From positions 32,001 through 96,000 of the IMG/VR virus record IMGVR_UViG_3300011113_000492: 64,000 nt of DNA. One strand, given 5' to 3'. Source of the stretch: a virus. Shown piece after piece: positions 4,882 to 43,139 of the stretch. The notes beneath the pieces are model-generated. The model searched no databases. It had not been told where the DNA came from and saw nothing but the letters and a program-made list of their open reading frames with translations. The position numbers and the translations under genes are program-made. Numbering within the stretch: the stretch's first letter is position 1; each line of letters opens with the position of its first letter.

Positions 4882-6936
4882 ATGAATCATAAACTTAAAA
4901 AACTATTGTTAAGTCCCTGGACTGCGCTGTTAACATTAGCACTTATTTTAAGTATAAGAATTGCCGATCCCGCTTTTATAGAAAGTGTGAGATTAAGATA
5001 CTTTGACACTCTTATCACACAAAAAACTTCTACGGACAACAATATATACACAGTCAATATAGATGAATCTAGTCTAGAAAAGTACGGCCAATGGCCATTA
5101 CCGAGGACAGAATATGCGAAAATTATTCAAGACCTTTATGCTCGCAATGCTGGCCTTGTTGTTCTCAATGTTCTTATGGCTGAGCCTGATCGTACTGGTG
5201 GAGATGGCGATCTTAGTGCCATACTTAAAAAGTATCCTGTAGTATTAGGTTCTGTGCCTAGTAACAAAACAAAAAATGAGCCGCGAGTTCCTGGATCAGC
5301 GGTCCTAGGCCCAGAATGGATGGACCAAATCGTTACATATCCAGGACTGATTGCCAACGTTCCTAAATTAGAAAATAATGCCGCAGGGGTCGGTATAGTG
5401 AACACACTACCAGAAGTAGACGGTGTTAATCGCCGTGTTCCTTTAATTGTAACTGTTGATGGAAAACTATATCCCGGACTGGCATTGGAAACATTGCGTG
5501 TGGCTACAGGCAATGACACATTTCAAGTTAAGTTATTCGAAGGAGGCGTTGAGAAAATGCGATTGCCTGGAGAAGTTGGAGTCATCAACACAGACAATCT
5601 TGGTCGCATATGGATTGATTGGAGCCAACAGAATAAATCGGTTAGCTTAACAAACTTACCAAAAGATTTTAATCGTGCTATTGTTGTAGTAGGACCCACT
5701 GCCGCTGGTATTGCTAATCCGATTCCAACTAGTAAAGGTGCAATATTTCCGCATGATGTACAAGCTGGCGTAATTGCTACAATAGCTAACGGTGTTGTTA
5801 TTCAGCGTCCGGACTATGCGGATGGCTTAGAAATTATTGCTATTGCAGTTTCGGGATTGTTATTACTGTTTTTAACAAGGTGGACTTATGTTGGACTTGC
5901 GTCGGTTATTGTATTGGTCGCTGGCGGTATTGCTGGCAGTTACTATGCTTACAGCAACTTTTTATTCTTATTTGACAGTACTGCCTTTGCAGTTAGCACA
6001 GTCCTGGTCGCTTTGCATGCCTACGGTGTCAAGTTTGTCTCAGAGTTCTTACAAAAGCAGGCCATAAAGAAACAATTTGCTGGCTACTGCTCAAAAGAAG
6101 TAGTGGAGATGTTACAAAAAGATCCGGACTTAATCAAGCGTGGTGTGCGTAAAGACGTATCGGTCATGTTCAGTGACCTACGTGGCTTTACACCTATCGG
6201 CGAACACTACGGAGATGATGTTGCTGGACTGGGCAAATACATGAATGGTTACATGGACAGCATCAGCAAGCCTATCATGGATAACAAAGGCATGGTCATC
6301 AAATATGTAGGTGATGCAAGTATGCACATACATGGTGCTCCTATTGAAGATCCCGACCACGCTCGCACTATCGTTAAGGTAGGATTAGAAATGTTAGATG
6401 CTGTTGACGAGTATACCAAGCTGATGGAAGCACAGGGCTTACCACCAGCCGCCATGGGCTGGGGTTGTAACACAGGTATTGGCTTTATTGGCGAGATGGG
6501 CAGCACTGATAGACACAGCTATGACATTTTGGGTGACATGGTTTCAACTGCGGCACGACTAGAAGCACGTTGTAAGGCCTATGGTGTGTTGGCTATCATT
6601 GGTGCTGAAACATATAATAGAACTAAAGACGACTTCTTCTATTTGTTGTTGGACAACTTACAACCTAAGGGAAAGACCGTGGCAGACTTAATCTATACAG
6701 TGATACGACCACGTGGTGAAGATTACAGTAAAGATCGAGAACAACACGAAGCAATGCATGCCTTGTATAAGGCTAAGAAATTTGACGAAGCTGCCGCTAT
6801 GTGTAAGAAGATGAAAGGTACCTTCGGTGGACAAATGGACAAGTACTACAAGATATGGATTGAACGCTGCGAATTTATGAAGCAACAGGATTTAGGTCCA
6901 ACTTGGAACGGCGAATTTATAGCGCACGAAAAATAA
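4882..6936 (+). CDS. CHASE2-domain membrane adenylate cyclase (class III)
   Basis: N-terminal TM, CHASE2-like region (VNIDESSLEKYGQWPLPR), 3 TM helices, MFSDLRGFT, KYVGDA, YDILGDMVSTAARLE. Confidence 0.9.
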   Translation: MNHKLKKLLLSPWTALLTLALILSIRIADPAFIESVRLRYFDTLITQKTSTDNNIYTVNIDESSLEKYGQWPLPRTEYAKIIQDLYARNAGLVVLNVLMAEPDRTGGDGDLSAILKKYPVVLGSVPSNKTKNEPRVPGSAVLGPEWMDQIVTYPGLIANVPKLENNAAGVGIVNTLPEVDGVNRRVPLIVTVDGKLYPGLALETLRVATGNDTFQVKLFEGGVEKMRLPGEVGVINTDNLGRIWIDWSQQNKSVSLTNLPKDFNRAIVVVGPTAAGIANPIPTSKGAIFPHDVQAGVIATIANGVVIQRPDYADGLEIIAIAVSGLLLLFLTRWTYVGLASVIVLVAGGIAGSYYAYSNFLFLFDSTAFAVSTVLVALHAYGVKFVSEFLQKQAIKKQFAGYCSKEVVEMLQKDPDLIKRGVRKDVSVMFSDLRGFTPIGEHYGDDVAGLGKYMNGYMDSISKPIMDNKGMVIKYVGDASMHIHGAPIEDPDHARTIVKVGLEMLDAVDEYTKLMEAQGLPPAAMGWGCNTGIGFIGEMGSTDRHSYDILGDMVSTAARLEARCKAYGVLAIIGAETYNRTKDDFFYLLLDNLQPKGKTVADLIYTVIRPRGEDYSKDREQHEAMHALYKAKKFDEAAAMCKKMKGTFGGQMDKYYKIWIERCEFMKQQDLGPTWNGEFIAHEK

Positions 6937-8461: not shown

Positions 8462-9619
8462 TTATTTGTACAAAATGTTTTTAACTTGATCAAATTTGAT
8501 ATTAGAAATATTAACTTTGCTGTCAGTAAAATCACAAAGAACTTGACGAAAGTTGTCAACTAATTCATTAACTATAAGAGTTTTAAAGTTTCCGTAAAAA
8601 TGGTTAAAGTTATAATCTACTGTAGACTTTACATCGACATACATATCATTGAGTTGGGAGTTTGACATCGAACAAAGTTTTTCTATTTGTTCAGTGATTA
8701 GCAATATTCTTTTATCTGGATCTAATTCATTGTCGTAACTTTCGTCTATCCAGCGATCAAAAGTTTTAAAACCGTAGCTTTTTAAATATGCAAGATTGCC
8801 CGGAGCACCTACTAAAATAAATGGTCTTTTCGACACAATTGGTTTAAAGATCTTTTCAGTGAGATGTAATTTGTGATCATAAAACACCGTTTCGGTGACT
8901 ACGTGCCAAAGAGCAGATTTATGCATAGAAATTTCTGCTATTCCTGTGTTAGCACTAGCGTGTCCTGGAGGATTGTCGGAATCTATAATTAATCCGTCTT
9001 TTAATTTTCCGATATTTTGCTCAACTCGGGCTTTGGCTTCTGGACTTAATCTTGACTGCGGATCCAGAAGTTCTTCCTGCCACGTTCCCAGTCCGTTGTC
9101 TCGTAATATTAAACTTACATGGCCGTGCTTTAAAAGATTCTTTTCATATAAATGACTTACTAAATTTAATCGATAACTTCTATCTTTTGTCACTAGTCTG
9201 TTGTAGCTAATAAATACTTTTGTGAAATGATTTTCGAATGTGGGTATATATTGATAGTCTCTGTACCAAGCTAGTGCAGCAAATCCATGAAAGAAATAAT
9301 ACCAATTTTTAAATTTAGTTTGTAGACATATATTGTCTACTAAATCTGATTTTTCGCTGTTGGCAAAAATTATTTCTTTGTTTGGAATTAGTTGTAATGA
9401 CTTATGATTTGCAATACAAGTTTGTACAATATTAGCATTTATAGGTTCTTGATCATAAAAAAAGCAATGATTTTTATAAAGTCTAATTTCTTCATGTATA
9501 CCAAACGCCAGATCATTGACAGCAGTGCTGCCGAATGGAAAAAAATAGCAGTCGGCTAGGTTTGCGGGTTTAAGTAAATTTGTGTATAATATAAGATATA
9601 AATTCTCTAAGGAAAACAT
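8462..9619 (-). CDS. Putative glycosyltransferase-like protein
   Basis: HVVTETVFY...LTEKIFKPIVSKRPFILVG...LKSYGFKTF motif resembles the GT10-like C-terminal fold common in large phages. Confidence 0.55.
   Translation of the reverse strand: MFSLENLYLILYTNLLKPANLADCYFFPFGSTAVNDLAFGIHEEIRLYKNHCFFYDQEPINANIVQTCIANHKSLQLIPNKEIIFANSEKSDLVDNICLQTKFKNWYYFFHGFAALAWYRDYQYIPTFENHFTKVFISYNRLVTKDRSYRLNLVSHLYEKNLLKHGHVSLILRDNGLGTWQEELLDPQSRLSPEAKARVEQNIGKLKDGLIIDSDNPPGHASANTGIAEISMHKSALWHVVTETVFYDHKLHLTEKIFKPIVSKRPFILVGAPGNLAYLKSYGFKTFDRWIDESYDNELDPDKRILLITEQIEKLCSMSNSQLNDMYVDVKSTVDYNFNHFYGNFKTLIVNELVDNFRQVLCDFTDSKVNISNIKFDQVKNILYK
9562..9590 (+). promoter_or_regulatory. sigma70-type promoter for the ugd cluster, inside the opposite-strand gene
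   Basis: TTGCGG-17-TATAAT. Confidence 0.55.
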
Positions 9620-9620
9620 T

Positions 9621-10871
9621 ATGACTTTCGAAAAAAAGAAAATTGGCTTTGTAGGTATTGGAAAACTGGGTTTAGATTGCGCCGAAGTTATGGCCGAAAA
9701 ACACGACGTCTGGGGCTATGATATTTACCCACGCACCAGTGACACTGTGAAAGTTTGTGATATTAAGGAACTATGCGAAAATGCCGAATGGATTTTTATT
9801 GCTGTTCCTACTCCACATGCAGAAGGATATGATGGCTCAGTGCCATCTAGCCATATGGAACCAAAAGACTTTGGCCATGATGCTGTTATTGATGCAATTA
9901 ACAAAGTTAATCAGTATTCCAATACCAGCAAAAAAGTGGTATTAATTAGCACAGTACTTCCTGGCACTACTCGAAGAAAATTTATTACTCTACTAGACAA
10001 AAAACATCAATTTTTGTATAACCCTTATTTGATTGCCATGGGCAGTGTTAAATGGGATATGGCCAATCCGGAGATGGTTATTATTGGTACCGAAGACGGC
10101 AGTCTTACTGGAGTAGCCGGAGAGTTGATCGACTTGTACAAGACTATGATGCAGAACGATCCCCGTTACGAAGTAGGAACATGGGATGAATGCGAAGCTA
10201 TTAAAATCTTTTATAACACATATATCAGTGCCAAAGTGGGCATTGTGAATATGATTCAAGACTTTGCCATGAAGATTGGCAATATTAATGTGGATGTGGT
10301 CACTAATGCATTGGCCCGTAGTACCATGCGTTTACAAGGACCCAAGTACATGACCGCAGGCATGGGCGATGCTGGTGCTTGCCACCCACGTGACAACATT
10401 GCACTACGTTGGCTTGCTAATCACTATGAAGTTGGATACGATTTGTTTGATACCATCATGCATGCCAGAGAAATTCAAGCAAAGAATTTGGGATTATTTT
10501 TAGTCGAACAATCCAAAGCTACAGGTTTACCTATTGTCATTCATGGTAAAGCATATAAACCGGACGTTGAATACTGCATCGGTTCTTACTCTACCCTAGT
10601 AGGACATTATGTTAAAGAAGCTGGATGTGCAGTATCATATGTAGATCCATTGGCAGATAATAAAGATGAAGTCGTAGCAGAAGTGAATGGACCAGCTGTT
10701 TATCTGTGGGCGCATAATCGTAAAATTACCTATGAATACACAGGCGAACAAGCGGACACAAAACCGTATTGTGTAATCGCTCCTGGCAGTATCATTGTTG
10801 ATCCGTGGCGTAAACTAAGTTCGGCAAACGGTATTACTGTAGTACACTATGGCAATACGCGACATCACTAA
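9621..10871 (+). CDS. ugd: UDP-glucose/GDP-mannose dehydrogenase family
   Basis: IGFVGIGKLG, FIAVPTP, ISTVLPGT, YNPY, CEAIKIFYNTY, GDAGACHPRD, KAYKP; RBS AAGGAA before ATG 9621. Confidence 0.9.
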   Translation: MTFEKKKIGFVGIGKLGLDCAEVMAEKHDVWGYDIYPRTSDTVKVCDIKELCENAEWIFIAVPTPHAEGYDGSVPSSHMEPKDFGHDAVIDAINKVNQYSNTSKKVVLISTVLPGTTRRKFITLLDKKHQFLYNPYLIAMGSVKWDMANPEMVIIGTEDGSLTGVAGELIDLYKTMMQNDPRYEVGTWDECEAIKIFYNTYISAKVGIVNMIQDFAMKIGNINVDVVTNALARSTMRLQGPKYMTAGMGDAGACHPRDNIALRWLANHYEVGYDLFDTIMHAREIQAKNLGLFLVEQSKATGLPIVIHGKAYKPDVEYCIGSYSTLVGHYVKEAGCAVSYVDPLADNKDEVVAEVNGPAVYLWAHNRKITYEYTGEQADTKPYCVIAPGSIIVDPWRKLSSANGITVVHYGNTRHH

Positions 10872-13124: not shown

Positions 13125-14423
13125 ATGTTTGACAAAACTTTTTGCTCTAGTCCCTGGTTCCACCTAAAATTAAAATACGACGGCACTTTTGCAGAATGTA
13201 GATGGGGGGATAAAAAATCCAATCATAATTTTACCACAAGTATTGTGCAATTTTACAATAGCAAGCAAATGTCCCATATGAGAACGCAGCTATTAAATGG
13301 AGAGAAACCCGATATTTGTGAAACTTGTTATTATGAGGAAACATTTGGAAAATTAAATGGCAGAATTCGTCAATTGAATAAGAGCGGAATTGATAAAAAT
13401 AATTTTGCATTAACAACAAGAAGTAGTCCGCATTACAGATTATTTGAATACAGTCAAAATAACAATGGGCAAGCAAATTATGAACCAGTCGATTTACAAA
13501 TAGATTTGGGCAACGTTTGTAATAGTGCATGTATTATGTGCGACCCATTTTCAAGTAGCAGATTGACATCGGATTACAATAAACTTAGTAAAACAAACCC
13601 GTTATTTCCTGTACCAACTCCTTATATATCTTGGACTCAGAATCCAACTCGACTAGACCAGTTTGTTAATGAACTTATTGAAATAAAGAATTTGAAATAC
13701 ATTCACTTCCTGGGAGGGGAGACACTATATGATCCTGCATTTTATACAATTTGTGAAAAACTAATAGACGCTGGTATTAGTAAAAATATCACTATTGGCA
13801 CAACAACCAATGGCACAATATATGATGATAGAGTGGTGAGATTAATAAATGAATTCGGCGGGTTTCATTTAGGTATTAGCATAGAAGCAGTTACTCCTAT
13901 CAATGATTATATCAGATATCCTGGCAAGTTAATTGATATTATTCCTAATATAGATAAGTTTTTAGAATTAAGAAAAACAACTAATCTTTTTGTCAGCCTA
14001 CGAATAACTCCTAATATTTTTACAATATACGATATAGATTTATTGATTAGATACATGCTTGAAAATCAAGTTATAGCAGAGAGTTGTAATATATTACAAA
14101 AACCAGCACAGCTCAGAATGGAATTATTGCCAGATGATATAAGACAGGAAATCGTTGCTAAGTTAAAAAAAGTAATAGAAGAGTTTCAATTAGAAAAATA
14201 TAACATAGTAAATGTACGGGTCACTGAATCAATTAAAAAAGTAATATCCGACATTGCTTATGAATATTTGAATTTTTTAGAAACATATTCCTCTCTGACA
14301 AATGAAGAAGAATTAAGACATAAACTAGTTGACTTTATCAAAGGATTTGAATCTCTGAGAGAAAATAGTATTTTAGATTATGCACCACGATATGAAAAAT
14401 TTCTCCGACATTACGGCTATTGA
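13125..14423 (+). CDS. Radical SAM protein with N-terminal Cys-rich (twitch-like) domain
   Basis: CNSACIMC (CxxxCxxC), FLGGETL, TTNGT, N-terminal FCSSPW...C...CETC. Confidence 0.9.
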   Translation: MFDKTFCSSPWFHLKLKYDGTFAECRWGDKKSNHNFTTSIVQFYNSKQMSHMRTQLLNGEKPDICETCYYEETFGKLNGRIRQLNKSGIDKNNFALTTRSSPHYRLFEYSQNNNGQANYEPVDLQIDLGNVCNSACIMCDPFSSSRLTSDYNKLSKTNPLFPVPTPYISWTQNPTRLDQFVNELIEIKNLKYIHFLGGETLYDPAFYTICEKLIDAGISKNITIGTTTNGTIYDDRVVRLINEFGGFHLGISIEAVTPINDYIRYPGKLIDIIPNIDKFLELRKTTNLFVSLRITPNIFTIYDIDLLIRYMLENQVIAESCNILQKPAQLRMELLPDDIRQEIVAKLKKVIEEFQLEKYNIVNVRVTESIKKVISDIAYEYLNFLETYSSLTNEEELRHKLVDFIKGFESLRENSILDYAPRYEKFLRHYGY

Positions 14424-14797: not shown

Positions 14798-15838
14798 ATG
14801 ACTACCACTATTACCCGACGTATTGGCTTTGCCTGCAAATGGATTGATAATGCCACTCAGATTGACGGCATTAAGGCCAAGGACGACTGTAAAAAGTATA
14901 ATACTGGTACAACTACCATTACTTGGTTAAATAAACAAAGTAAACAGGTTGCTGAAGAAAAGCTTTGGACATTGATGCGCCAGAATATCGAAGCAACAAA
15001 ACTCTTAGTAGAAAAGGTCAGTACACTTGAACCGCATCTTAGAATGGTACGACTCAGCAGTGATATACTGCCTGCTTACACTGAGCCAAGCTGGTCTTGG
15101 TTTTATAGATTACCCGATGTCCGAGCTTACGCAGAAAGACATTTCGGAACCATCGGTGATATTGCTAGGAAGATGGATGTTAGGCTTAGTATGCATCCTG
15201 GTCAGTTTGTGGTTCTGGCTAGTGATAGAGCAGATGTTGTAGATCGTAGCATAGAGGAATTTGAGTATCATGCGGATATGGCGAGATGGATGGGGTATGG
15301 TCAAAGATATCAGGACTTTAAGATCAATGTCCACATTGCCGGTAGAGCCGGTCCCCAAGGTATTCGCGCTGCCCTCAAAAGACTTACCCCCGAAGCAAGA
15401 AACTGCATCACCATCGAAAATGACGAAATCACATGGGGAATCGAAGACAGCCTCGAACTGGTCAACGATCTCGCTTTGGTGCTAGACATCCATCACCATT
15501 GGATTAAAACTGGAGAATACATTGAGAACAATGATGACCGTATTAAAAGGATTATTGATAGCTGGCGTGGTATGCGTCCTGTTATACATTACTCCGTTAG
15601 CCGTGAAGATGTACTTGTCGGCTATCCCGGACACGAACGCCCCTCTCTTGGTCCGTTGATGGAACAGGGCTACAAAAAAGGTAAACTACGAGCACACAGC
15701 GATTTTTACTGGAATGACGCGGTTAATACATGGGCAGTGACTCACAACGAATGGGCAGATATCATGTGCGAAAGTAAAGCCAAAAATTTGGCCAGCTTTG
15801 AACTGGCCAAATATGCTCAACTTAAAAATCTAATTTAG
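14798..15838 (+). CDS. uvsE: UV DNA damage endonuclease
   Basis: RIGFACK, MVRLSSD, RLSMHPGQFVVLAS, NVHIAG, ITIENDE, LVLDIHHH, VIHYS, RAHSD. Confidence 0.92.
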   Translation: MTTTITRRIGFACKWIDNATQIDGIKAKDDCKKYNTGTTTITWLNKQSKQVAEEKLWTLMRQNIEATKLLVEKVSTLEPHLRMVRLSSDILPAYTEPSWSWFYRLPDVRAYAERHFGTIGDIARKMDVRLSMHPGQFVVLASDRADVVDRSIEEFEYHADMARWMGYGQRYQDFKINVHIAGRAGPQGIRAALKRLTPEARNCITIENDEITWGIEDSLELVNDLALVLDIHHHWIKTGEYIENNDDRIKRIIDSWRGMRPVIHYSVSREDVLVGYPGHERPSLGPLMEQGYKKGKLRAHSDFYWNDAVNTWAVTHNEWADIMCESKAKNLASFELAKYAQLKNLI

Positions 15839-26574: not shown

Positions 26575-26610
26575 ATTAAAAATAAATATAATATCCGACA
26601 ACTATTATCT

Positions 26611-35079: not shown

Positions 35080-35199
35080 TAAATATTTGACACACAGATA
35101 ATGGCTAGGTGAAACATCTCAAAGAAGTCAACATGGGATATTTCTAAAGGTTTTAGTAGTGGCAGACTTAAATCAAGTATGTTGCAAAAAAGTATAGTA

Positions 35200-35562
35200 G
35201 TTTAACGCTTCGATAGAAAGAAGTTCTGGACCCGGCTAGCATATGCCGGCAGGTCCACCAAGTATGCTAGTCCGGTAGCGATAGTGTGAGTGACTACAGT
35301 CTTGTGCGAGTCAAGACCATACCTGATGGGCCTGAAAAGATTCGACAGGGCAACAAGTATTGACAAGATCTACTCGGCAATGTAGAAGCCGTTAGGATTG
35401 GGGTCACCCGGTCGAAGACACACAAACCGTAAATGCAAAAGCATCTACATCTGGTAGCTTCAAGTTCAGCGGAAAAGGCGTAAAGCTTGCTTCTGCTCGT
35501 CGTGAAGCTGTATTGGCCTAAGTAGCCAAACCCGGGGTTGGTAACCTTGTAACTCAATAACC
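35200..35562 (+). ncRNA. ssrA: Circularly permuted (two-piece) tmRNA; outer boundaries approximate
   Basis: Acceptor piece ends CAGGTCC-ACCA at 35260; coding piece starts GGGCCTG at 35328 (7-bp stem with G3:U); GATTCGAC follows; AGGGC/GTTCT and TATTGA/TCGATA pairings; tag ORF 35435-35521 AKASTSGSFKFSGKGVKLASARREAVLA*. Confidence 0.88.
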
Positions 35563-35567
35563 TAATT

Positions 35568-35587
35568 AGGACCTTCGGGTCCTTTTT
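35568..35587 (+). terminator. Rho-independent terminator after tmRNA
   Basis: AGGACC-TTCG-GGTCCT-TTTT. Confidence 0.85.
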
Positions 35588-35607
35588 ATTTGTTCGAATG
35601 TTCGAGA

Positions 35608-35636
35608 TTGTAATCTTTCTGTAATCAATTTGACAT
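35608..35636 (+). promoter_or_regulatory. Pho box upstream of pstS
   Basis: TTGTAAT, CTGTAAT, TTGACAT at exact 11-bp spacing, resembling the PhoB CTGTCAT repeat. Confidence 0.75.
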
Positions 35637-35667
35637 TAAATATCATTACAACTATCAAGGAGATTAA

Positions 35668-36675
35668 ATGAAAAAAATCACAGCATTTATTAGTGCATTA
35701 CTAATTTCTACATCTGCATTTAGTGCAGACATTACCGGTGCAGGTGCAACATTCCCTTTCCCAATCTATGCTAAATGGGCAGAAGCATATAAAAAGGCCA
35801 CTGGCACAGGTATGAACTATCAAAGTATTGGCAGTTCAGGTGGCATTAGACAAATCAATGCTAGAACTGTGGATTTTGGTGCAACTGATGCTCCAGTTAA
35901 AGGTGAAGACCTAGACAAGCAGGGTCAAGTTCAGTTTCCTGCTATCATTGGCGGAACAGTGCCAGTGGTAAACCTAGATGGTTTTAAACCAGGCGAACTA
36001 CGCATCACCGGACCAGTTATGGCCGAAGTGTTCATGGGAACTATTTCTAAATGGAATGATCCTAAACTGGTAGCATTGAATCCAGGCAAGATTCTGCCCA
36101 ACACAGAAATCACTGTGGTTCATCGTGCTGATGGTAGTGGCACAACATTTAACTGGACAGATTATCTTACTACTGTGAGTCCCGAGTGGGAGAAGCGTGT
36201 GGGTCGTGGTGCCGCAGTTAAATGGCCAGCAGCCACATCGGTAGGTGGCAAAGGCAACGAAGGTGTTGCTGCTAATGTGAACAGAATTAAAGGTTCGATC
36301 GGTTATGTAGAGTATGCTTATGTTAAAAAGAACAACATGACATTTCTACAACTACAGAATAAAGCAGGTCGATGGGTAAGTCCAGATGACTTAACATTTG
36401 CCGCAGCAGCAGATGGTGCTGATTGGTTTAGTGTTCCAGGCATGGGATTGAGTATTGTGGATCAGCGTAATCCTAATGCGTGGCCAGTGAGTTCAGCAAG
36501 TTTCATCATCATGTACAAAGAGCCAAAGAACAAAGCTGCCAGCGATGAAGTATTAAAGTTCTTTGATTGGGCATTTAAGAATGGTAAGAAGATGAGTGAG
36601 GAATTAGATTATGTACATTTACCTACCGTATTACAAGATCAGATTCGTCAGCGAGTTTGGAGCCAGATAAAGTAA
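35668..36675 (+). CDS. pstS: Phosphate ABC transporter substrate-binding protein
   Basis: ITGAGATFPFPIYAKWA, YQSIGSSGG, DFGATD, HRADGSGTT, IGYVEYAY. Confidence 0.97.
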   Translation: MKKITAFISALLISTSAFSADITGAGATFPFPIYAKWAEAYKKATGTGMNYQSIGSSGGIRQINARTVDFGATDAPVKGEDLDKQGQVQFPAIIGGTVPVVNLDGFKPGELRITGPVMAEVFMGTISKWNDPKLVALNPGKILPNTEITVVHRADGSGTTFNWTDYLTTVSPEWEKRVGRGAAVKWPAATSVGGKGNEGVAANVNRIKGSIGYVEYAYVKKNNMTFLQLQNKAGRWVSPDDLTFAAAADGADWFSVPGMGLSIVDQRNPNAWPVSSASFIIMYKEPKNKAASDEVLKFFDWAFKNGKKMSEELDYVHLPTVLQDQIRQRVWSQIK

Positions 36676-36718
36676 ACCGACCACAAAGATAGAGTGGCGC
36701 TGGAACTCGTAACCAGTA

Positions 36719-36742
36719 TAGGACCTATAGGGTCCTATTTTT
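36719..36742 (+). terminator. Rho-independent terminator after pstS
   Basis: TAGGACC-tatag-GGTCCTA + T tract. Confidence 0.8.
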
Positions 36743-36757
36743 ATTTCAACGGGTACA

Positions 36758-36775
36758 TTGTAATAATCTTGTAAC
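36758..36775 (+). promoter_or_regulatory. Pho box upstream of the plcP-like gene
   Basis: TTGTAAT and TTGTAAC 11 bp apart. Confidence 0.6.
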
Positions 36776-36807
36776 ACTGAGACGCAACATTTACAGTAAA
36801 TATGATT

Positions 36808-37701
36808 ATGTCAACACAACCTAAAACTTATCGAAGTATTTTTATCAGCGATGTTCATTTAGGGACTAAAGACAGTCAAGCGGACAAGTTAAACAACTTT
36901 CTCAAACACAATACCTGCGACACGCTATATCTAATAGGCGACATCATCGACGCTTGGCGTATACAACAAAACAAGTGGCGTTGGAAACAAAGCCATACCA
37001 ATGTGGTCCGTCGTGTGCTAGGACATGCTAAACGAGGCACTCGGGTGGTTTATGTAGCAGGTAATCATGATGAGTTCCTACGTCCAATGATACCTTACGG
37101 GTTCAGTTTTGGTCTAGTAGAAATACACAATCAAATTGAACATATAGGTGCTGACGGTAAACACTATCTAGTCACTCATGGCGATTTGTTTGATGGTATT
37201 ACTAGACTAGCACCTTGGATCAGTTTTTTAGGCGACAAGGCCTATGACTTTGTCTTAATGTTAAATGCTAAATTCAATTGGTTCAGACACAAAATGGGAT
37301 TTGGTTATTGGAGTCTATCAAAGTATCTAAAACATCGCGTTAAAAAAGCTGTAGATTTTATGTTTCAGTTTGAAAAGAATCTAGCAGGCTATTGCAAGAA
37401 GCGTGGTTTTGATGGAGTGATCTGTGGGCACATACATCACGCAGAAATTAAAGAAATAGACGGGGTAACATATATGAATGACGGCGACTGGGTTGAATCA
37501 TGTACTGCACTAGTAGAGCATTGGAACGGCCGTTGGGAGATAGTAATTTGGACCAAGGAGAGAGATGATGTGGATAATGATACTGCTAGCGATTCATTCA
37601 AAAAATCCAAACGACATCCCAGGAAGAATAACGCTGACATTCCCGGACCAGGTATCGTGCGAATCGGTGCTCAAGACGATGTCGTATCAACTAAAGTTTG
37701 A
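36808..37701 (+). CDS. plcP: PlcP-like phospholipase C (LpxH-like metallophosphoesterase)
   Basis: FISDVHLG, LYLIGDIIDAW, GNHDEFLR, HGDLFD, ICGHIHH, YMNDGDWVESCTAL; adjacent GT4 gene; alternative start 36802. Confidence 0.75.
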   Translation: MSTQPKTYRSIFISDVHLGTKDSQADKLNNFLKHNTCDTLYLIGDIIDAWRIQQNKWRWKQSHTNVVRRVLGHAKRGTRVVYVAGNHDEFLRPMIPYGFSFGLVEIHNQIEHIGADGKHYLVTHGDLFDGITRLAPWISFLGDKAYDFVLMLNAKFNWFRHKMGFGYWSLSKYLKHRVKKAVDFMFQFEKNLAGYCKKRGFDGVICGHIHHAEIKEIDGVTYMNDGDWVESCTALVEHWNGRWEIVIWTKERDDVDNDTASDSFKKSKRHPRKNNADIPGPGIVRIGAQDDVVSTKV

Positions 37702-37744
37702 AAGTTTTAAGGTAGTAGGCGAATGCAAAAAACAATTCTCATAG
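37565..37744 (+). CDS. 59-aa overlapping ORF with hydrophobic N-terminus (not in ORF track)
   Basis: AAGGAG at 37555-37560; MMWIMILLAIHSKNPNDIPGRITLTFPDQVSCESVLKTMSYQLKFESFKVVGECKKQFS*. Confidence 0.6.
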   Translation: MMWIMILLAIHSKNPNDIPGRITLTFPDQVSCESVLKTMSYQLKFESFKVVGECKKQFS

Positions 37745-38733
37745 TAACAGACAATTTACCGGAGCAGATCAATGGCGTGGTTACGACCTACAAAAATATT
37801 GAGGTTATGGCGGTTCTCAACGGTTATCGTGTTGTTTATCTTGATCCCGGGCGGTTCCGCTATGTTGATTGCCCTGGCTACAACGAAGTCAAGATTGCCT
37901 TTCCCCGGAAAGTGGGCCAGATACTTGAGGAGATCAATCCGGATCATATCCACATCGCCACGGAGGGTCTTGTGGGTCTGCGTGTTAGACAATATCTTGA
38001 CAAACACGGTTATCGCTACAATACTGCTTATCACACTAAGTTTCCAGAAGGAATTAAGAAGCTGTTTGGAATACCTGAGGCCCTTACTTGGCCTTTAGTG
38101 CGTTGGTTTCATAAGCATAGCGGCAAGGTGTTAACCACCACAGACTCAATGGTCAAGGAGCTACAACAACATGGATTTGATGGAGATATTGTATCTTGGA
38201 CAAGAGGTGTTGATAGGAACATTTTCTATCCTAGCGATTCTTTTACTAACACTGGCATTCTCTTGTGCGTTAGTAGAGTTTCTAGAGAAAAAAACTTAGA
38301 AGATTTTTTTAAACTAGACTACCCGGGTTATCGTAAAGTCATGGTGGGTGATGGACCTATGTTGGAAACATATCAATATCAGTACCCTGATGTTGAATTC
38401 GTGGGTTATAAAACTGGTAAAGAATTGGCTGACTACTATAGACAAGCTGATGTATTTGTATTCCCTAGCCATTGGGAGACATTTGGTATAGTTATGATTG
38501 AGGCAATGGCCTGCGGTACTCCGGTCGCAGCATATCCTGTACAAGGTCCCCTGGATGTAATAGACCAAAATATAACTGGTTGTATGAATGATAATCTGAT
38601 TCAAGCAATCAATGACGCAATCTTGCTTGATCGACGAAAAGTTTGGAATGGCAGTCACCGTTGGAGCTGGAGTCGAGCTTGGGAAATTTTTAGAGATAAT
38701 TTAATTGAAAAATCTTCTACTAGAATCAATTGA
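37723..38733 (+). CDS. GT4 glycosyltransferase, Agt-like (diacylglycerol glycosyltransferase)
   Basis: IVTDNLPEQINGVV, HIATEG, YHTKFPE, WTRGVD, SRVSREKN, FPSHWETFGIVMIEAMACGTPV. Confidence 0.8.
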   Translation: MQKTILIVTDNLPEQINGVVTTYKNIEVMAVLNGYRVVYLDPGRFRYVDCPGYNEVKIAFPRKVGQILEEINPDHIHIATEGLVGLRVRQYLDKHGYRYNTAYHTKFPEGIKKLFGIPEALTWPLVRWFHKHSGKVLTTTDSMVKELQQHGFDGDIVSWTRGVDRNIFYPSDSFTNTGILLCVSRVSREKNLEDFFKLDYPGYRKVMVGDGPMLETYQYQYPDVEFVGYKTGKELADYYRQADVFVFPSHWETFGIVMIEAMACGTPVAAYPVQGPLDVIDQNITGCMNDNLIQAINDAILLDRRKVWNGSHRWSWSRAWEIFRDNLIEKSSTRIN

Positions 38734-38816: not shown

Positions 38817-39137
38817 ATGAAAAAATCGGCAGTGGCGTTCCTATTCTGCTTAACCAGCACCATAGCCAACGCTCAAAATAATTCTAATTTTACACAAGTA
38901 CCCAAACCTGTCGTCTGTGGTCCCACTGAACTAATTTTTAAAGCGTTGATTAATTCTGAGATAAACGAACAACCGGTATGGACAGGAAAGAATGAAGATG
39001 ATCGAAGTGATTACGCATTATTCATTAATCCTAAAACTAATACGTTTACCATAGTTCAGTTTGCAAAAGAATGGGCCTGTATTTTAGGCACCGGTTTTAA
39101 ATCACAAAAATTTAGTAATTTTACCAAAAGTCTTTGA
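38817..39137 (+). CDS. Secreted hypothetical protein
   Basis: Signal peptide; KPVVC ... ACILGTG. Confidence 0.7.
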   Translation: MKKSAVAFLFCLTSTIANAQNNSNFTQVPKPVVCGPTELIFKALINSEINEQPVWTGKNEDDRSDYALFINPKTNTFTIVQFAKEWACILGTGFKSQKFSNFTKSL

Positions 39138-39198: not shown

Positions 39199-39750
39199 AT
39201 GAAAACAGTTGGCGACCGCCTAGAACCTTTTGTTGTGACCGGTGTGAATCCTGGCAGCGACAAGTTTTTTGACATCACAGAAAAGAGTTTTGAAGGCAAG
39301 TGGAAAGTAATCGTTTACTATCCCAAGGACTTTACATTCGTTTGCCCTACAGAAATTGTGGCCTATGATAAGTTGGCCAAAGACTTTGCAGATCGTGATG
39401 CTGTATTGCTCACAGGCAGCACTGACAATGAGTTCTGTAAACTGGCATGGCAGAAAGCCCATCCTGATCTGGCCAAGATCACTCACATTCAATTTGCTGA
39501 CACTCAGCGTTGGAATGATCATACAGGTCATAATATGAGTTTGATTGAACAGCTGGGTGTGTTCTATGCTCCAGCAGGTGCTGCACTTCGCGCAACATTC
39601 ATCGTTGATCCAAACAATGAAATTCAGCATGTCACTGTGAACAACTTGAATGTTGGTCGTAGCCCAGAAGAAACTCTGCGTGTTCTTGATGCGCTACAAA
39701 CTGGCGAGTTGTGTGCATGTAACCGTACCGTCGGCGGCGAGACTCTATAA
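39199..39750 (+). CDS. ahpC: Peroxiredoxin
   Basis: YYPKDFTFVCPTEI, ALRATFIVDP, TGELCAC. Confidence 0.95.
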   Translation: MKTVGDRLEPFVVTGVNPGSDKFFDITEKSFEGKWKVIVYYPKDFTFVCPTEIVAYDKLAKDFADRDAVLLTGSTDNEFCKLAWQKAHPDLAKITHIQFADTQRWNDHTGHNMSLIEQLGVFYAPAGAALRATFIVDPNNEIQHVTVNNLNVGRSPEETLRVLDALQTGELCACNRTVGGETL

Positions 39751-40415
39751 TGCTTGAAATGCTGTGGGCCCTGTTGGCCATTGTGTTAATCGATGTTGTA
39801 TTAGGCGGCGAAAATGCTCTGGTTATTGCTATGGCTAGCCGCGGCTTGCCCGAGCACCTACGGCGCCGAGCATTGATTTGGGGCACATTTGGTGCTGTAG
39901 CTGTGCGTTTCTTATGTGTAGCAGTACTGACTTATCTGCTGATGATTCCAGGACTTCGATTAGTCGGTGGATTGATGCTGATTTACATTGCATGGAAACT
40001 TACAGCCAATGAACAAAACCACGGTGATGTCAGGGCTGCCACTACATTTTGGGGTGCTATGGCAACCATTGTTTGGGCTGATGCCGTAATGGGCTTGGAC
40101 AATGCACTAGCCATTGCAGGTGCCGCAGGGGGTAATTGGTTACTGATTATCTTTGGTCTATTACTCAGTGTGCCCATCATTTTGTTTGGCAGTACTATTG
40201 TTGCTAAAGTTATAGACAAGTATCCAGACAGTATTTTTGTTGGTGCATTTGTGTTGTATGTTGTGGCCATTAAAATGATTGTACACGAGCCTTTCATCGA
40301 TAATCATCTAGATCCGTTACACGATTTTTACGAACATATTTTGCCGTGGGCCGGTGCTGTAATTTTAACTGCTAAACAGTATTACAGATCACGAATCAGG
40401 AGTAAACATGCTTGA
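39750..40415 (+). CDS. TerC/YjbE family integral membrane protein
   Basis: IDVVLGGENALVIA, ADAVMGLDNALAIA, GLLLSVPII. Confidence 0.85.
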   Translation: MLEMLWALLAIVLIDVVLGGENALVIAMASRGLPEHLRRRALIWGTFGAVAVRFLCVAVLTYLLMIPGLRLVGGLMLIYIAWKLTANEQNHGDVRAATTFWGAMATIVWADAVMGLDNALAIAGAAGGNWLLIIFGLLLSVPIILFGSTIVAKVIDKYPDSIFVGAFVLYVVAIKMIVHEPFIDNHLDPLHDFYEHILPWAGAVILTAKQYYRSRIRSKHA

Positions 40416-41070
40416 AACCATCTGCGAAACACTGGTAGAAGCTTACCGACGTAATTGGATTACCAGTCGCGATGGTAATGTTAGCATACGCCACCACGAT
40501 CGTGATCACTTTTATATCACACCTAGTGGTGTGCGTAAACAAACTTTGCAACCAGATCAGTTTAAGAAGATTGCAATTCATAAACATATTCAAAGCGGAT
40601 TTGGCACCGCATCTTTTAACTATGCTTGGCAAGATGTTCCCTACACTGACATTAGTTCTAACTTAAAACCCAGCGGAGAAATTCCACTACATTTCGGACT
40701 ACAACGAGAAATGGGACAACACAAAGATGATGTTAGAGTCGTAGTTCACTTGCACCCCACTTACTGTGTTGCAGCCATGCATGCCGGTATTAATTTGAGT
40801 ACCATTGTCAACGACTTTCCTGAGCTAAGTCGTTATACGCGAGTGGCACCCAATGTGCCAGATGTGCCGCCCATCAGTCAAGAGCTGGCAGATCGTTGCC
40901 ATCATAACTTACAACTGGATAAGGATGGCAACATTTACTATGACATTGTGGGCATCAAAGGTCACGGTGTTGTGGCCATTGACACCAGCCCGTGGCGTGC
41001 ATTTGAACATATTGAACGTCTTGAGCACATTTCTAAAATTGTATTAGCCAGTAAAGGTTATCATGATTGA
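40408..41070 (+). CDS. Class II aldolase/adducin family protein
   Basis: DGNVSIR, ITPSG, PSGEIPLH, VVHLHP, GHGVVA. Confidence 0.85.
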   Translation: MLETICETLVEAYRRNWITSRDGNVSIRHHDRDHFYITPSGVRKQTLQPDQFKKIAIHKHIQSGFGTASFNYAWQDVPYTDISSNLKPSGEIPLHFGLQREMGQHKDDVRVVVHLHPTYCVAAMHAGINLSTIVNDFPELSRYTRVAPNVPDVPPISQELADRCHHNLQLDKDGNIYYDIVGIKGHGVVAIDTSPWRAFEHIERLEHISKIVLASKGYHD

Positions 41071-42208
41071 TCCAAAAATAGAATTAGCACTGCTCAATGA
41101 GAGTATTAGACAGAATCAAACCATTGAACTGATTGCCAGTGAAAACTATACCAGTCAAGCAGTCATGGACTTGTGCGGCAGTATATTGACTAACAAGTAT
41201 GCCGAAGGCCTCCCAGGCAAGCGTTACTACAATGGATGTCGTAATGTAGACGAGATTGAAAACATTGCTATTGAGTATGCTACTAAGTTGTTTGACTGTG
41301 CGTTTGCCAATGTGCAACCACACAGTGGTGCCAATGCCAACCTAGCAGTGTTCAAAGCATTCTTGAACATGGGAGACACAGTGGTGGGCATGGACTTGGC
41401 CAGCGGAGGACATTTGAGTCATGGCGCTAAAGTCAACATCAGCGGCAACTGGTTTTTCAGTCACAGTTACGGAGTCGACCCGCAGGGTTTTATCGACTAT
41501 GATAAAGTGGCACAGTTAGTATGGGATACAAGGCCCAAACTAGTTATTGCTGGCGCTAGTGCCTATAGTCAAATCATTGATTGGGCCAGGTTTCGTGAGA
41601 TCGCTGATTCAGTTGGAGCACTGCTACTAGCAGATGTGGCTCATTATTCAGGATTAATCGTGGGCGGAGAGTATCCCAGTCCTTTTCCCTATGCAGATGT
41701 TGTTACCACTACAACACACAAAGGTCTACGTGGACCACGAGGCGGTTTAATTTTGTGGAATGATGCAGAGTTTTCAAAACAACTTAATAGTGCTGTATTT
41801 CCAGGTACACAGGGCGGCCCACTGATGCATATCATTGCTGGCAAGGCACAGTGTTTCTATGAAGCACTGCAACCAGAGTTTAAAGACTATGCTAGGCAGG
41901 TTAGACTAAATGCTGACGCTATGGCAGAGACTTTTATCAATGCTGGTATCAATATTGTCAGTGGCGGTACTCGGTGTCATATGTTTACCATTGATCTACG
42001 CAATGAGTCATTGAGTGGGCGCGAGTATGCCGACAAATTAGAAGCACAGGGCATCACTGTAAACAAAAACGGTGTACCAGGTGAAACTCGGAGCTTTGCC
42101 GAAACATCGGGTGTGCGTATCGGTGTAGCAGCAGAAACAACTCGTGGTCATGATGAAAAATGGTTTCGCGATTTAGCGCATCGTATGATTAAAATTCTAA
42201 GAGGTTAA
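41063..42208 (+). CDS. glyA: Serine hydroxymethyltransferase
   Basis: LIASENY, NKYAEGLPGKRYY, VQPHSG, TTTTHKGLRGPRGG (PLP Lys), FPGTQGGP. Confidence 0.95.
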   Translation: MIDPKIELALLNESIRQNQTIELIASENYTSQAVMDLCGSILTNKYAEGLPGKRYYNGCRNVDEIENIAIEYATKLFDCAFANVQPHSGANANLAVFKAFLNMGDTVVGMDLASGGHLSHGAKVNISGNWFFSHSYGVDPQGFIDYDKVAQLVWDTRPKLVIAGASAYSQIIDWARFREIADSVGALLLADVAHYSGLIVGGEYPSPFPYADVVTTTTHKGLRGPRGGLILWNDAEFSKQLNSAVFPGTQGGPLMHIIAGKAQCFYEALQPEFKDYARQVRLNADAMAETFINAGINIVSGGTRCHMFTIDLRNESLSGREYADKLEAQGITVNKNGVPGETRSFAETSGVRIGVAAETTRGHDEKWFRDLAHRMIKILRG

Positions 42209-42210
42209 CA

Positions 42211-42624
42211 ATGATAGAATGTTTAATTATTGGTGATAGTATTGCTGTAGGTACTGCTATGGCTCGTAAAGAATGCGTAAGTTATGCCAAGGGCGGTTGG
42301 AACAGTTGGCAATGGAACAAAGATTATTTGTCTCAGGCCGCCGCCCAACCTGCTCGAACTGTGATTATCAGCTTAGGTGCTAATGATCACAAAGGTGTAA
42401 AGACTGAGTTTGAGTTGCGTAAGATGCGTGAAGCAGTTCGAGGTCAGCGTGTTTTCTGGATTGATCCTGGAAAAGATCGCAAGCCTGTGCCGCACGATGC
42501 AATTGTAAAAATCGCACAAGAATATGGAGATACAATTCTGCCTCGACCCAAAGATCATATGAGCGCCGACGGCATTCACCCTACAGGCCGAGGATATAAA
42601 ATTTTAGGAGAACAGGCACGATGA
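42211..42624 (+). CDS. SGNH/GDSL hydrolase
   Basis: IIGDSIA, SLGAND, DGIHP. Confidence 0.85.
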   Translation: MIECLIIGDSIAVGTAMARKECVSYAKGGWNSWQWNKDYLSQAAAQPARTVIISLGANDHKGVKTEFELRKMREAVRGQRVFWIDPGKDRKPVPHDAIVKIAQEYGDTILPRPKDHMSADGIHPTGRGYKILGEQAR

Positions 42625-43139
42625 CACAATGGGTAGATGCATTAAAGGAATCTAGTATTCCTGATTATGCAAAGGATACTAAACTTAATTTGGATGCCGT
42701 AATCAAACGCAGCACATTACCTGCAGAAGAAGCCGAAGCAGTTGCAGTTGCAGCCGCATTTGCCACAGGTAATAGTAAATTTTGGACTTGGTTACACAGT
42801 CAAATTGCAGATCGCAAAGAAGCAGACGCGGCACTGACTGCCGCAAGCATTATGTCAATGAACAATACTTGGTACCCATATGTTGAAATGGCCAACGACG
42901 AAAATCTAAAAGGTCTGCCAGCACAGTTACGCATGAACGCTATTGCCAGCCACGGTGGTACAACTAAAGCCAAATTTGAAGCATACAGTTTAGCTGCCAG
43001 TATTGTTGGCAAGTGTCACTTCTGTGTAAAAGCACATTATGAAACGTTAAAAAAAGAAGGATACACAGTGGAGCAACTTCGTGACATTGGGCGTATCGCC
43101 GCAGTAATTGTCAGCGTGTCTAGGGTATTAAGTTCTTAA
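42621..43139 (+). CDS. ahpD: Alkylhydroperoxidase AhpD
   Basis: IPDYAKDTKLNL, MNNTWY, LAASIVGKCHFCVKAH. Confidence 0.9.
   Translation: MTQWVDALKESSIPDYAKDTKLNLDAVIKRSTLPAEEAEAVAVAAAFATGNSKFWTWLHSQIADRKEADAALTAASIMSMNNTWYPYVEMANDENLKGLPAQLRMNAIASHGGTTKAKFEAYSLAASIVGKCHFCVKAHYETLKKEGYTVEQLRDIGRIAAVIVSVSRVLSS

Follow-up and report, generated by a model that had tools for sequence, protein, structure and literature searches.

Operons that pair plcP, for a metallophosphoesterase-type phospholipase C, with agt, for a diacylglycerol (DAG) glycosyltransferase, have been described from bacteria such as Sinorhizobium meliloti (SMc00171), Pseudomonas aeruginosa (PA3219-PA3218), SAR11 HTCC7211 (plcP and agt PB7211_960), and Burkholderia (plcP-agt-dagK). 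Here, we analyzed a viral counterpart at positions 35608-38733 of a 64-kb stretch of DNA, called the window below, which comprises bases 32001-96000 of the 123-kb IMG/VR virus record IMGVR_UViG_3300011113_000492 (completeness 35% according to CheckV). The block holds pstS, plcP, and agt, all on the plus strand. It has the same gene families, order, and upstream Pho box as the bacterial operons, at 46–55% identity for PlcP and 37–46% for Agt, and all catalytic motifs are kept in the phage proteins. Unlike the bacterial operons, the viral plcP copies have a clade of their own, the Pho box is fused to a TAAATA element at 11 or 21 nt, and the plcP mRNA is probably nearly leaderless. The block also lacks the dagK gene of the Burkholderia operon, and most of its viral relatives have a 240-residue glycosyltransferase of family 2 (GT2) where these bacterial operons have one of family 4 (GT4). 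What appears new here, judged from sequence, is the wide occurrence of a known bacterial pathway in viruses, as a module with a hybrid promoter of its own. We read the block as a candidate phosphate-stress island of a T4-like jumbo phage, in which PhoB-gated pstS and plcP-agt would mine membrane phosphorus for the genome, and we put the probability of this reading at roughly 0.72. A first-pass annotation of the window had already proposed a Pho-type block with which a phage remodels lipids through PlcP and Agt, and the enzyme tree, the LpxH scores, the orthology of Agt, and the conserved boxes described below all support that proposal.

Like pstS (and phoA) of cyanophages and pstS of pelagimyophages, the pstS gene of the window encodes a phage phosphate-binding protein and is situated in a variable genomic island of a T4-like phage. 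Cyanophage pstS is reportedly under the control of host PhoB, as described by Zeng and Chisholm in 2012. Unlike in cyanophages, where the cyanobacterial half-site is PyTTAAPyPy, the half-sites here are of the proteobacterial type, TGTMAY. Phage PstS is thought to raise phosphate uptake by the host under phosphorus stress (PMC12379486). Furthermore, pstS is paired here with a predicted lipid-remodeling operon, of a kind that is not known from published phage phosphorus-stress islands.

Among isolate phages, we found a PlcP homolog only in Pelagibacter phage Mosig EXVC030M (47.7% identity) and Synechococcus phage S-SRM01 (36.5% identity). Both proteins belong to the PlcP family but are annotated as "LpxH," and neither gene has an adjacent glycosyltransferase. 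In Mosig, pstS and the PlcP homolog are divergent and back-to-back, and the intergenic region (L001:5842-5991) contains TTAACA-aaaac-TTAACA with an 11-bp period, which resembles a cyanobacterial-type Pho box. A near-identity DNA search of isolate phages with the block gave no match. Term searches of the Mosig announcement and of the pelagimyophage and Melnitz papers found no mention of a PlcP-type gene, and the S-SRM01 paper does not contain the word "diacylglucosamine." Full-text searches, in which subscription journals are not fully covered, returned papers that treat PlcP-Agt in bacteria or pstS in phages. No paper on phage PlcP or Agt was among them, in line with the first-pass annotation, which knew of no characterization of this lipid pair in a phage. 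There are two reasons why the module may have been overlooked: its enzyme is systematically mislabeled as LpxH, and at least one ocean catalog of auxiliary metabolic genes discards contigs that carry glycosyltransferases (PMC11360552).

The plcP and agt genes and their relatives

The open reading frame (ORF) at 36802-37701 encodes a protein of 299 residues with the domains PF00149 and PF12850. All seven metal ligands (D17, H19, D47, N88, H126, H210, and H212) are present and align with those of characterized PlcPs and of LpxH. They are invariant in 58 unique viral homologs, and the full PlcP-type motif set that had been read from this protein is borne out. Identity is 46% to the S. meliloti PlcP ortholog (E value 2e-83) and 55% to the ortholog of P. 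aeruginosa PA3219 (E value 1e-96), while these two orthologs are 47% identical to each other, in agreement with a published 46%. Characterized PlcPs are 46–47% identical among themselves (PMC8528852). The phage protein is therefore at least as similar to the characterized PlcPs as those members are to one another. The named reference sequences were taken from chromosomes mislabeled in PLSDB and were recognized by their gene neighborhoods. The S. meliloti homolog adjoins genes for a LuxR regulator and an acyl-homoserine lactone synthase, which we take to be the sinR/sinI region of SMc00171, the first characterized PlcP. The P. aeruginosa homolog is followed by genes for a glycosyltransferase and an adenylate cyclase, and this is the PA3219-PA3218-PA3217 arrangement known from that species (PMC8528852). 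The linkage of the phage gene is also that of a plcP, with a Pho box upstream (36758-36775), agt 21 nt downstream, and a glycosyltransferase gene after plcP in 75 of 80 related viral loci.

LpxH is the enzyme name that databases give to this protein. Both are calcineurin-like metallophosphoesterases and have the seven metal ligands and an inserted lid region in common. Homologs of the phage protein are labeled LpxH by the Joint Genome Institute (JGI) and GenBank. The PDB holds no close relative, and its best matches are LpxH structures at an E value of only about 2.5e-4. On these grounds, the phosphoesterase could be a UDP-2,3-diacylglucosamine diphosphatase and the GT4 a core glycosyltransferase of lipopolysaccharide (LPS), but we consider this very improbable. 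Identity to LpxH is only about 20–23% (23% over 120 residues for Escherichia coli LpxH), and both LpxH equivalog models fail by a wide margin, with 45.9 bits for NF003743 (cut-off 134) and 35 bits for TIGR01854 (cut-off 190). True LpxH proteins score 239–319 bits in the same kind of search.

Next to these scores, a maximum likelihood tree of 65 sequences, seven of them LpxH, separates the two families (supports are SH-aLRT values). The LpxH sequences all group together (99). The other group, that of PlcP (97), is made up of the two characterized PlcPs, 24 bacterial homologs, and 29 viral sequences, among them the protein of the window. The first-pass annotation had asked for a phylogeny against PlcP and LpxH and had named clustering with LpxH as the outcome that would speak against it; no such clustering is seen. 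The viral sequences, together with four copies binned into metagenome-assembled genomes (MAGs), form a single clade (99), with the Mosig and S-SRM01 proteins outside it. Furthermore, three bacterial genomes encode both a true LpxH (239–281 bits) and a PlcP-like paralog (36–45 bits), and the alphaproteobacteria Hirschia and Roseomonas have the homolog together with LpxI and no LpxH. An LPS role also sits poorly with the 46–55% identity to characterized PlcPs and with the GT4, which is an ortholog of a DAG glucosyltransferase, as described next. We therefore assign 36802-37701 to PlcP and not to LpxH, an assignment made at the level of sequence. PADLOC gave no defense-system match for PlcP or the GT4, and the Pfam "GT4-conflict" match is weak.

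The gene after plcP, agt, occupies 37723-38733 and encodes a predicted GT4 DAG glycosyltransferase of 336 residues. As the first-pass annotation had noted, the metallophosphoesterase is followed by a GT4 enzyme: the product matches PF13439, PF00534, and PF13692, has the two-domain GT4 architecture, and carries the E-x7-E motif ETFGIVMIE at residues 252–260. Its identity to the P. aeruginosa Agt1 ortholog, which is encoded by the gene after plcP, is 37% over 334 residues (E value 2e-81). Characterized Agts share 35–41% identity, and Agt1 is a DAG glucosyltransferase (PMC8528852). In each of five bacterial genomes, we found one strong match to the phage GT4 (212–276 bits, 38–46% identity), with all other matches at 79 bits or less, and in four of the five the strong match is the gene immediately 3' of the plcP homolog. 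Such a GT4 lies within 6 kb in 32 of 76 bacterial plcP loci. The order plcP then GT4 agt has been called the "type 2" arrangement (PMC4796936). By these comparisons, the phage GT4 is best described as an ortholog of the plcP-linked Agt.

The phage enzyme could transfer glucose, glucuronate, or both. Agt1 uses UDP-glucose, Agt2 uses UDP-glucuronate, and the SAR11 Agt uses both (PMC8528852, PMC4796936). A putative ugd gene elsewhere in the window had been suggested as the source of UDP-glucuronate, and this part of the earlier proposal is not supported. The ORF in question (9582-10871) reaches 130 bits with TIGR03026 (cut-off 189.8) and no more than 90 bits with the equivalogs for UDP-glucose dehydrogenase (cut-offs of at least 670). 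We rejected the link as unsupported. The product is only a divergent nucleotide-sugar dehydrogenase that misses every NCBIfam cut-off, and its gene is 26 kb away and has no Pho box. The neighbors of this plus-strand ORF encode a radical SAM protein (13125-14423) and UvdE (14798-15838) and are not sugar-pathway genes.

We fetched 80 IMG/VR loci whose homologs are 77–92% identical to the phosphoesterase. Close plcP homologs occur on at least 599 IMG/VR contigs, including complete T4-like genomes of 345–525 kb. In 60 of the 80 loci, the gene after plcP encodes a GT2/GT21-like transferase of about 240 residues (for example, L162:5223-5942), and in 15 it encodes a GT4. The glycosyltransferase partner of plcP is exchangeable, yet it is almost always present. 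In 14 of the 80 loci, a gene for a DesA-family fatty-acid desaturase (400 bits) stands no more than three genes away from plcP. Considering the GT2 and DesA neighbors together, lipid genes cluster around plcP in this phage clade. Cyanophages are said to encode lipid desaturases as well (Roitman et al., 2018). Like those desaturases, PlcP-Agt would be a phage auxiliary function that alters host membrane lipids. Unlike PlcP-Agt, the cyanophage desaturases alter acyl-chain saturation rather than head groups or membrane phosphorus.

Pho-box-like repeats and the TAAATA core

The block consists of two transcription units, each with a terminator, a Pho box, and a TAAATA core in front of its genes, pstS in the first unit and plcP-agt in the second. 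The four elements pointed out in the first-pass annotation, namely, the repeats, pstS, the metallophosphoesterase, and the GT4, are all in place. A terminator scan together with the sequence shows an intrinsic terminator (AGGACCTTCGGGTCCT and a T-run) at 35568-35593, which ends the upstream transfer-messenger RNA (tmRNA) unit and insulates the pstS promoter. A second intrinsic terminator (ATAGGACCTATAGGGTCCTAT and a T-run) lies 3' of pstS at 36718-36748. Terminators thus precede each promoter, none was found by the scan between plcP and agt, and agt is predicted to be co-transcribed with plcP.

The first gene, pstS (35668-36675), encodes the periplasmic phosphate-binding protein of a PstSCAB transporter, 335 residues long. 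The pstS call made earlier stands, as the product passes both equivalog cut-offs, with 391.1 bits for NF008171 (cut-off 339) and 369.4 bits for TIGR00975 (cut-off 205), and it also matches PF12849. The protein is of the enterobacterial type (PRK10918) and is 35–38% identical to cyanophage PstS.

The pstS box (TTGTAAT-cttt-CTGTAAT, 35608-35625) lies 43 nt 5' of the pstS ATG at 35668, and the box of the plcP-agt operon (TTGTAAT-aatc-TTGTAAC, 36758-36775) lies 27 nt 5' of the ATG at 36802. The first-pass annotation had described 11-bp-periodic repeats before both genes. Two half-sites in each promoter are confirmed, while the third and fourth "repeats" proposed for pstS (TTGACAT TAAA TATCATT) overlap the TAAATA core at 35637-35642, and conservation in relatives is limited to two half-sites in each promoter. 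Each box therefore has two CTGTCAT-like direct repeats of 7 nt with a period of 11 bp, which is the sequence pattern of a Pho box (at least two such repeats), and we regard both as putative PhoB sites. The pstS box differs at 3 of 14 positions from CTGTCATNNNNCTGTCAT, an E. coli-type consensus that may not be that of the host. With both strands counted, the motif TGT[AC]A[CT]-N5-TGT[AC]A[CT] has exactly two matches in the 64-kb window and, likewise, in the entire 123-kb record, and both are these promoters. A first-order Markov model gives an expectation of 0.28 matches per 64 kb.

The boxes are conserved well beyond this record. The strict motif is found upstream of plcP in 55 of the 80 related viral loci, in 36 distinct versions and behind 27 different upstream genes. 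It is also found 57–70 nt 5' of the pstS start in each of the 12 viral pstS genes for which sufficient upstream sequence is available. Several related loci without a plcP box of their own have pstS directly upstream, with the box in front of pstS instead. Half-sites at the same position in relatives read TGTAAT, TGTAAC, TGTCAC, or TGTCAT, of which the latter two are the classical Pho-box core, and some relatives have an exact TGTCAC-N5-TGTCAC at the equivalent position. The box type is cellular as well. Among bacterial plcP homologs, a site with at most three mismatches to CTGTCATN4CTGTCAT lies within 200 nt upstream at 19 of 70 loci, compared to 15 of 1400 control segments, and the cellular pstS nearest to the phage gene is preceded by ATGTCAT-gtag-ATGTCAC.

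In both promoters, the box is followed by a -10-like TAAATA core. The core of pstS (35637-35642) is 11 nt 3' of its box, with an AAGGAG in the leader between the core and the pstS start, and that of plcP (36797-36802) is 21 nt 3' of its box, one extra helical turn. A TAAATA follows the box at all 57 unique Pho-box sites, with a gap of 11 nt in 46, of 21–22 nt in 10, and of 0 nt in one, whereas a TAAATA is found within 45 nt of only 2.7% of random positions. By these gaps, the Pho box stands where a -35 element would be expected, some 10 nt ahead of the -10 element. Neither of the pstS and plcP promoters was reported to have a -35-like hexamer. The composite Pho-box/TAAATA pattern occurs once or twice per genome in five complete relatives (345–525 kb), the reversed control pattern does not occur, and the genes behind the composite sites are plcP, pstS, or one gene for an acidic protein of 215 residues. 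This last protein, of about 215 residues (L135:7706-8353 and also L192, L194, and L195), is rich in Ala, Val, and Glu, has coiled-coil-like ends, and matches no family. Its gene is absent from the window.

TAAATA is probably the general promoter core of this phage, of a late type. In the genome, 31 of the 79 plus-strand copies fall in the 9% that is intergenic, compared to 7 of 39 on the minus strand. The element ends 0–60 nt before 30 of 157 plus-strand ORFs (for example, at window positions 26583, 38790, and 57929; on this scale, the record runs from -28487 to 84208), and no conserved -35 element lies 5' of it. By analogy, the core may correspond to the late promoters of T4-type phages, which it resembles. 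The TAAATA of plcP overlaps the first ATG of the ORF (36802). In relatives, the plcP start codon follows 4–6 nt after TAAATA, without a Shine-Dalgarno sequence. The true start of plcP is therefore probably the ATG at 36808, on a nearly leaderless mRNA. The Atlas record of the PlcP protein begins at residue 3.

Several observations weigh against a PhoB-gated phosphate island. At 5 of 14 positions, the plcP box departs from CTGTCATN4CTGTCAT, the E. coli-type consensus that may not be the host's, and the half-sites of this record are TGTAAY where the canonical form is TGTCAY. About 30 other genes use the same TAAATA core without a -35 element, so that expression could be late and constitutive, and we know of no case in which PhoB acts with a T4-type late sigma factor. 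The block is also mosaic: the trio of pstS, plcP, and GT4 is found in only two of the 80 related loci, plus this record.

These points lead to an alternative in which PhoB does not bind the repeat. A phage factor or a different host factor would bind it instead, or the repeat would strengthen a TAAATA late promoter, and the genes would be expressed in every infection regardless of phosphate. The generality of the core without a -35 element and the TGTAAY half-sites agree with this, and PhoB normally contacts region 4 of sigma-70, which is not used in T4-type late transcription. We nevertheless consider the alternative unlikely. The box precedes pstS, the archetypal gene of the Pho regulon, in 12 of 12 relatives, and the exact TGTCAC-N5-TGTCAC of some relatives stands at the same place. 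The arrangement of an 18-bp box followed after 10–11 nt by the -10 element is the geometry of a PhoB promoter, and cellular plcP and pstS carry the same type of box. Furthermore, a search for an OmpR/PhoB-type DNA-binding (winged-helix) domain found none in the five complete relatives, while the control search was positive in 10 of 14 control genomes. Whatever reads the box must therefore be either a host factor or a phage protein outside this family.

Proposed use of membrane phosphorus

In the reading that we prefer, the mechanism would begin with a host-type Pho box of two TGTAAY half-sites (11-bp period), held at the -35 position and in fixed helical phase (11 or 21 nt) to the TAAATA of the phage. 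In a phosphate-starved cell, the PhoR/PhoB system of the host would already be active, and PhoB~P would turn on both units. PstS would add phosphate-binding capacity to the PstCAB transporter of the host. PlcP, as a predicted di-metal phosphoesterase, would cleave the phospho-head group from phosphatidylethanolamine, phosphatidylglycerol, or phosphatidylcholine to leave DAG. Agt, as a predicted retaining GT4 enzyme, would then move a hexose from a UDP-sugar to DAG, giving monoglycosyl-DAG, glucuronosyl-DAG, or both. The bilayer would stay intact with a phosphorus-free lipid, and the phosphorus of the phospholipids would pass into soluble phospho-head groups, from which host phosphatases would release inorganic phosphate. 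This phosphorus may feed DNA synthesis, for which a genome of ~350 kb needs about 0.7 million phosphates per copy.

The same enzymes could also serve another purpose. A change of the envelope surface might block superinfection, give resistance to membrane stress, or stabilize the membrane over the long cycle of a jumbo phage. Lipid remodeling in bacteria alters phage attachment and susceptibility to grazing (PMC9938194, PMC9457565), and glycolipids change polymyxin tolerance (PMC8528852). The DesA-type desaturase within three genes of plcP in some loci likewise points to membrane tuning. This purpose would not explain why plcP-agt and pstS share a dedicated box that marks only one or two promoters per complete genome, a coupling that would otherwise be needless. 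Moreover, the bacterial orthologs belong to the Pho regulon (PMC4796936), as the enrichment of Pho boxes at bacterial plcP loci also indicates. We give the surface-change explanation an outside chance and continue to favor a supply of phosphorus.

A further alternative is that the block is bacterial DNA that was misjoined to, or misclassified as, a viral contig. In its favor, plcP copies that are 73–86% identical are present in the MAGs of four bacteria (Haliscomenobacter, Polynucleobacter, Fischerella, and a gammaproteobacterium). In the tree, these copies (L003-L006) nest inside the monophyletic viral clade (99). The gene occurs on at least 599 IMG/VR contigs, and five of the genomes are complete, with 345–525 kb and a T4-type Gp23. 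The G+C content of the window is uniform, its neighboring genes are common to Melnitz and HTVC008M, and the promoters carry the phage's own TAAATA core. The Polynucleobacter MAG has, in addition, a separate plcP-agt pair of its own, at 52% and 43% identity. Thus, the four MAG contigs are probably mis-binned phage contigs, and contamination is improbable in the extreme.

If the phosphate-island reading is correct, a stronger claim can be formulated, which we hold only tentatively and would sooner doubt than accept. Here, a large clade of T4-like jumbo phages (345–525 kb) would exchange phospholipid for glycolipid on its own, possibly also where the host has no such pathway. PhoB~P docked in strict helical register on the TAAATA core, which has no -35 element, would drive the genes, and host phosphate sensing would in this way directly gate a phage-modified polymerase. 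Where waters are phosphorus-limited, membrane phospholipid would supply virus production with a quantitatively relevant phosphorus reserve.

Phosphorus supply is a recognized bottleneck of phage production in oligotrophic waters, and the known phage answers are uptake (pstS) and the scavenging of dissolved organic phosphorus (phoA). PlcP-Agt would, if our reading is true, be a third route, in which the phosphorus of the host membrane is recycled internally while the envelope stays intact. The module is not rare, given the at least 599 IMG/VR contigs, and genomes of 345–525 kb have an unusually high phosphorus demand per particle. On this reading, the Pho-box/TAAATA promoter would be a compact case of a phage wiring the output of a host two-component system into its own transcription program. 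Part of the idea is accessible in culture, with phage Mosig and its host Pelagibacter. Pelagibacter strain HTCC1062 reportedly lacks the genes for lipid renovation (Carini et al., 2015).

Phage affiliation and neighboring features

The record appears to belong to a Melnitz/pelagimyophage-like group of T4-like phages, to judge by a shared CHASE2 adenylate cyclase. This protein (window 4882-6936, plus strand) is 45% identical to its counterpart in Methylophilales phage Melnitz and 38% identical to that in Pelagibacter phage HTVC008M. Two-piece tmRNAs and curli genes are known traits of Melnitz-like phages and pelagimyophages (PMC9004378). Just 5' of the pstS unit, at 35196-35462 on the plus strand, we found a permuted (two-piece) tmRNA gene, which matches Rfam RF04321 with 63 bits (gathering score 47). 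No tRNA or tmRNA was detected by ARAGORN, which thus missed the permuted gene. All five of the complete related genomes (345–525 kb) have a gene for a T4-type Gp23 capsid protein, and a search of the 123-kb fragment found none. The G+C content is even over the whole window.

The nearest cellular relatives of the phage genes do not agree on a host. For PlcP, they are Hyphomonadaceae at ~61% identity. For PstS, the nearest is 75% identical and comes from one high-GC genome in the GTDB class that includes the Polynucleobacter MAG (401 genomes searched). Since these relatives differ, the two genes indicate different donors, and neither identifies the host. In a class-wide search, 144 of 401 sampled alphaproteobacterial species, a count that includes one unpublished genome, have a plcP homolog.

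A two-hairpin RNA-like element of about 40 nt (CGACCAC...GTGGCG followed by CTGG...CCAG) lies in the 3' region of pstS at 36676-36716. It is present in one copy per genome and is usually followed by a terminator. In related phages, we found 12 further distinct versions, behind pstS, the GT4 gene, the GT2 gene, or an uncharacterized gene, and the changes in stem 1 are compensatory. A comparison with Rfam gave no family match.

Directly 3' of agt, an ORF of 106 residues (window 38817-39137, plus strand) has a signal-peptide-like N-terminus and is 77% conserved in one relative (locus L089). An off-phase TGTAAT-tag-TGTAAA and a TAAATA precede it, and searches of Pfam, NCBIfam, and PADLOC gave no match. 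The block is then followed by a run of auxiliary-type genes at 39199-43139 on the plus strand. These encode an AhpC/peroxiredoxin, a TerC membrane protein, a class II aldolase, a serine hydroxymethyltransferase (478 bits), a GDSL-lipase-like protein, and a CMD-family protein. The GDSL-lipase-like protein (42211-42624) is short, and lipids could be a substrate for it too.

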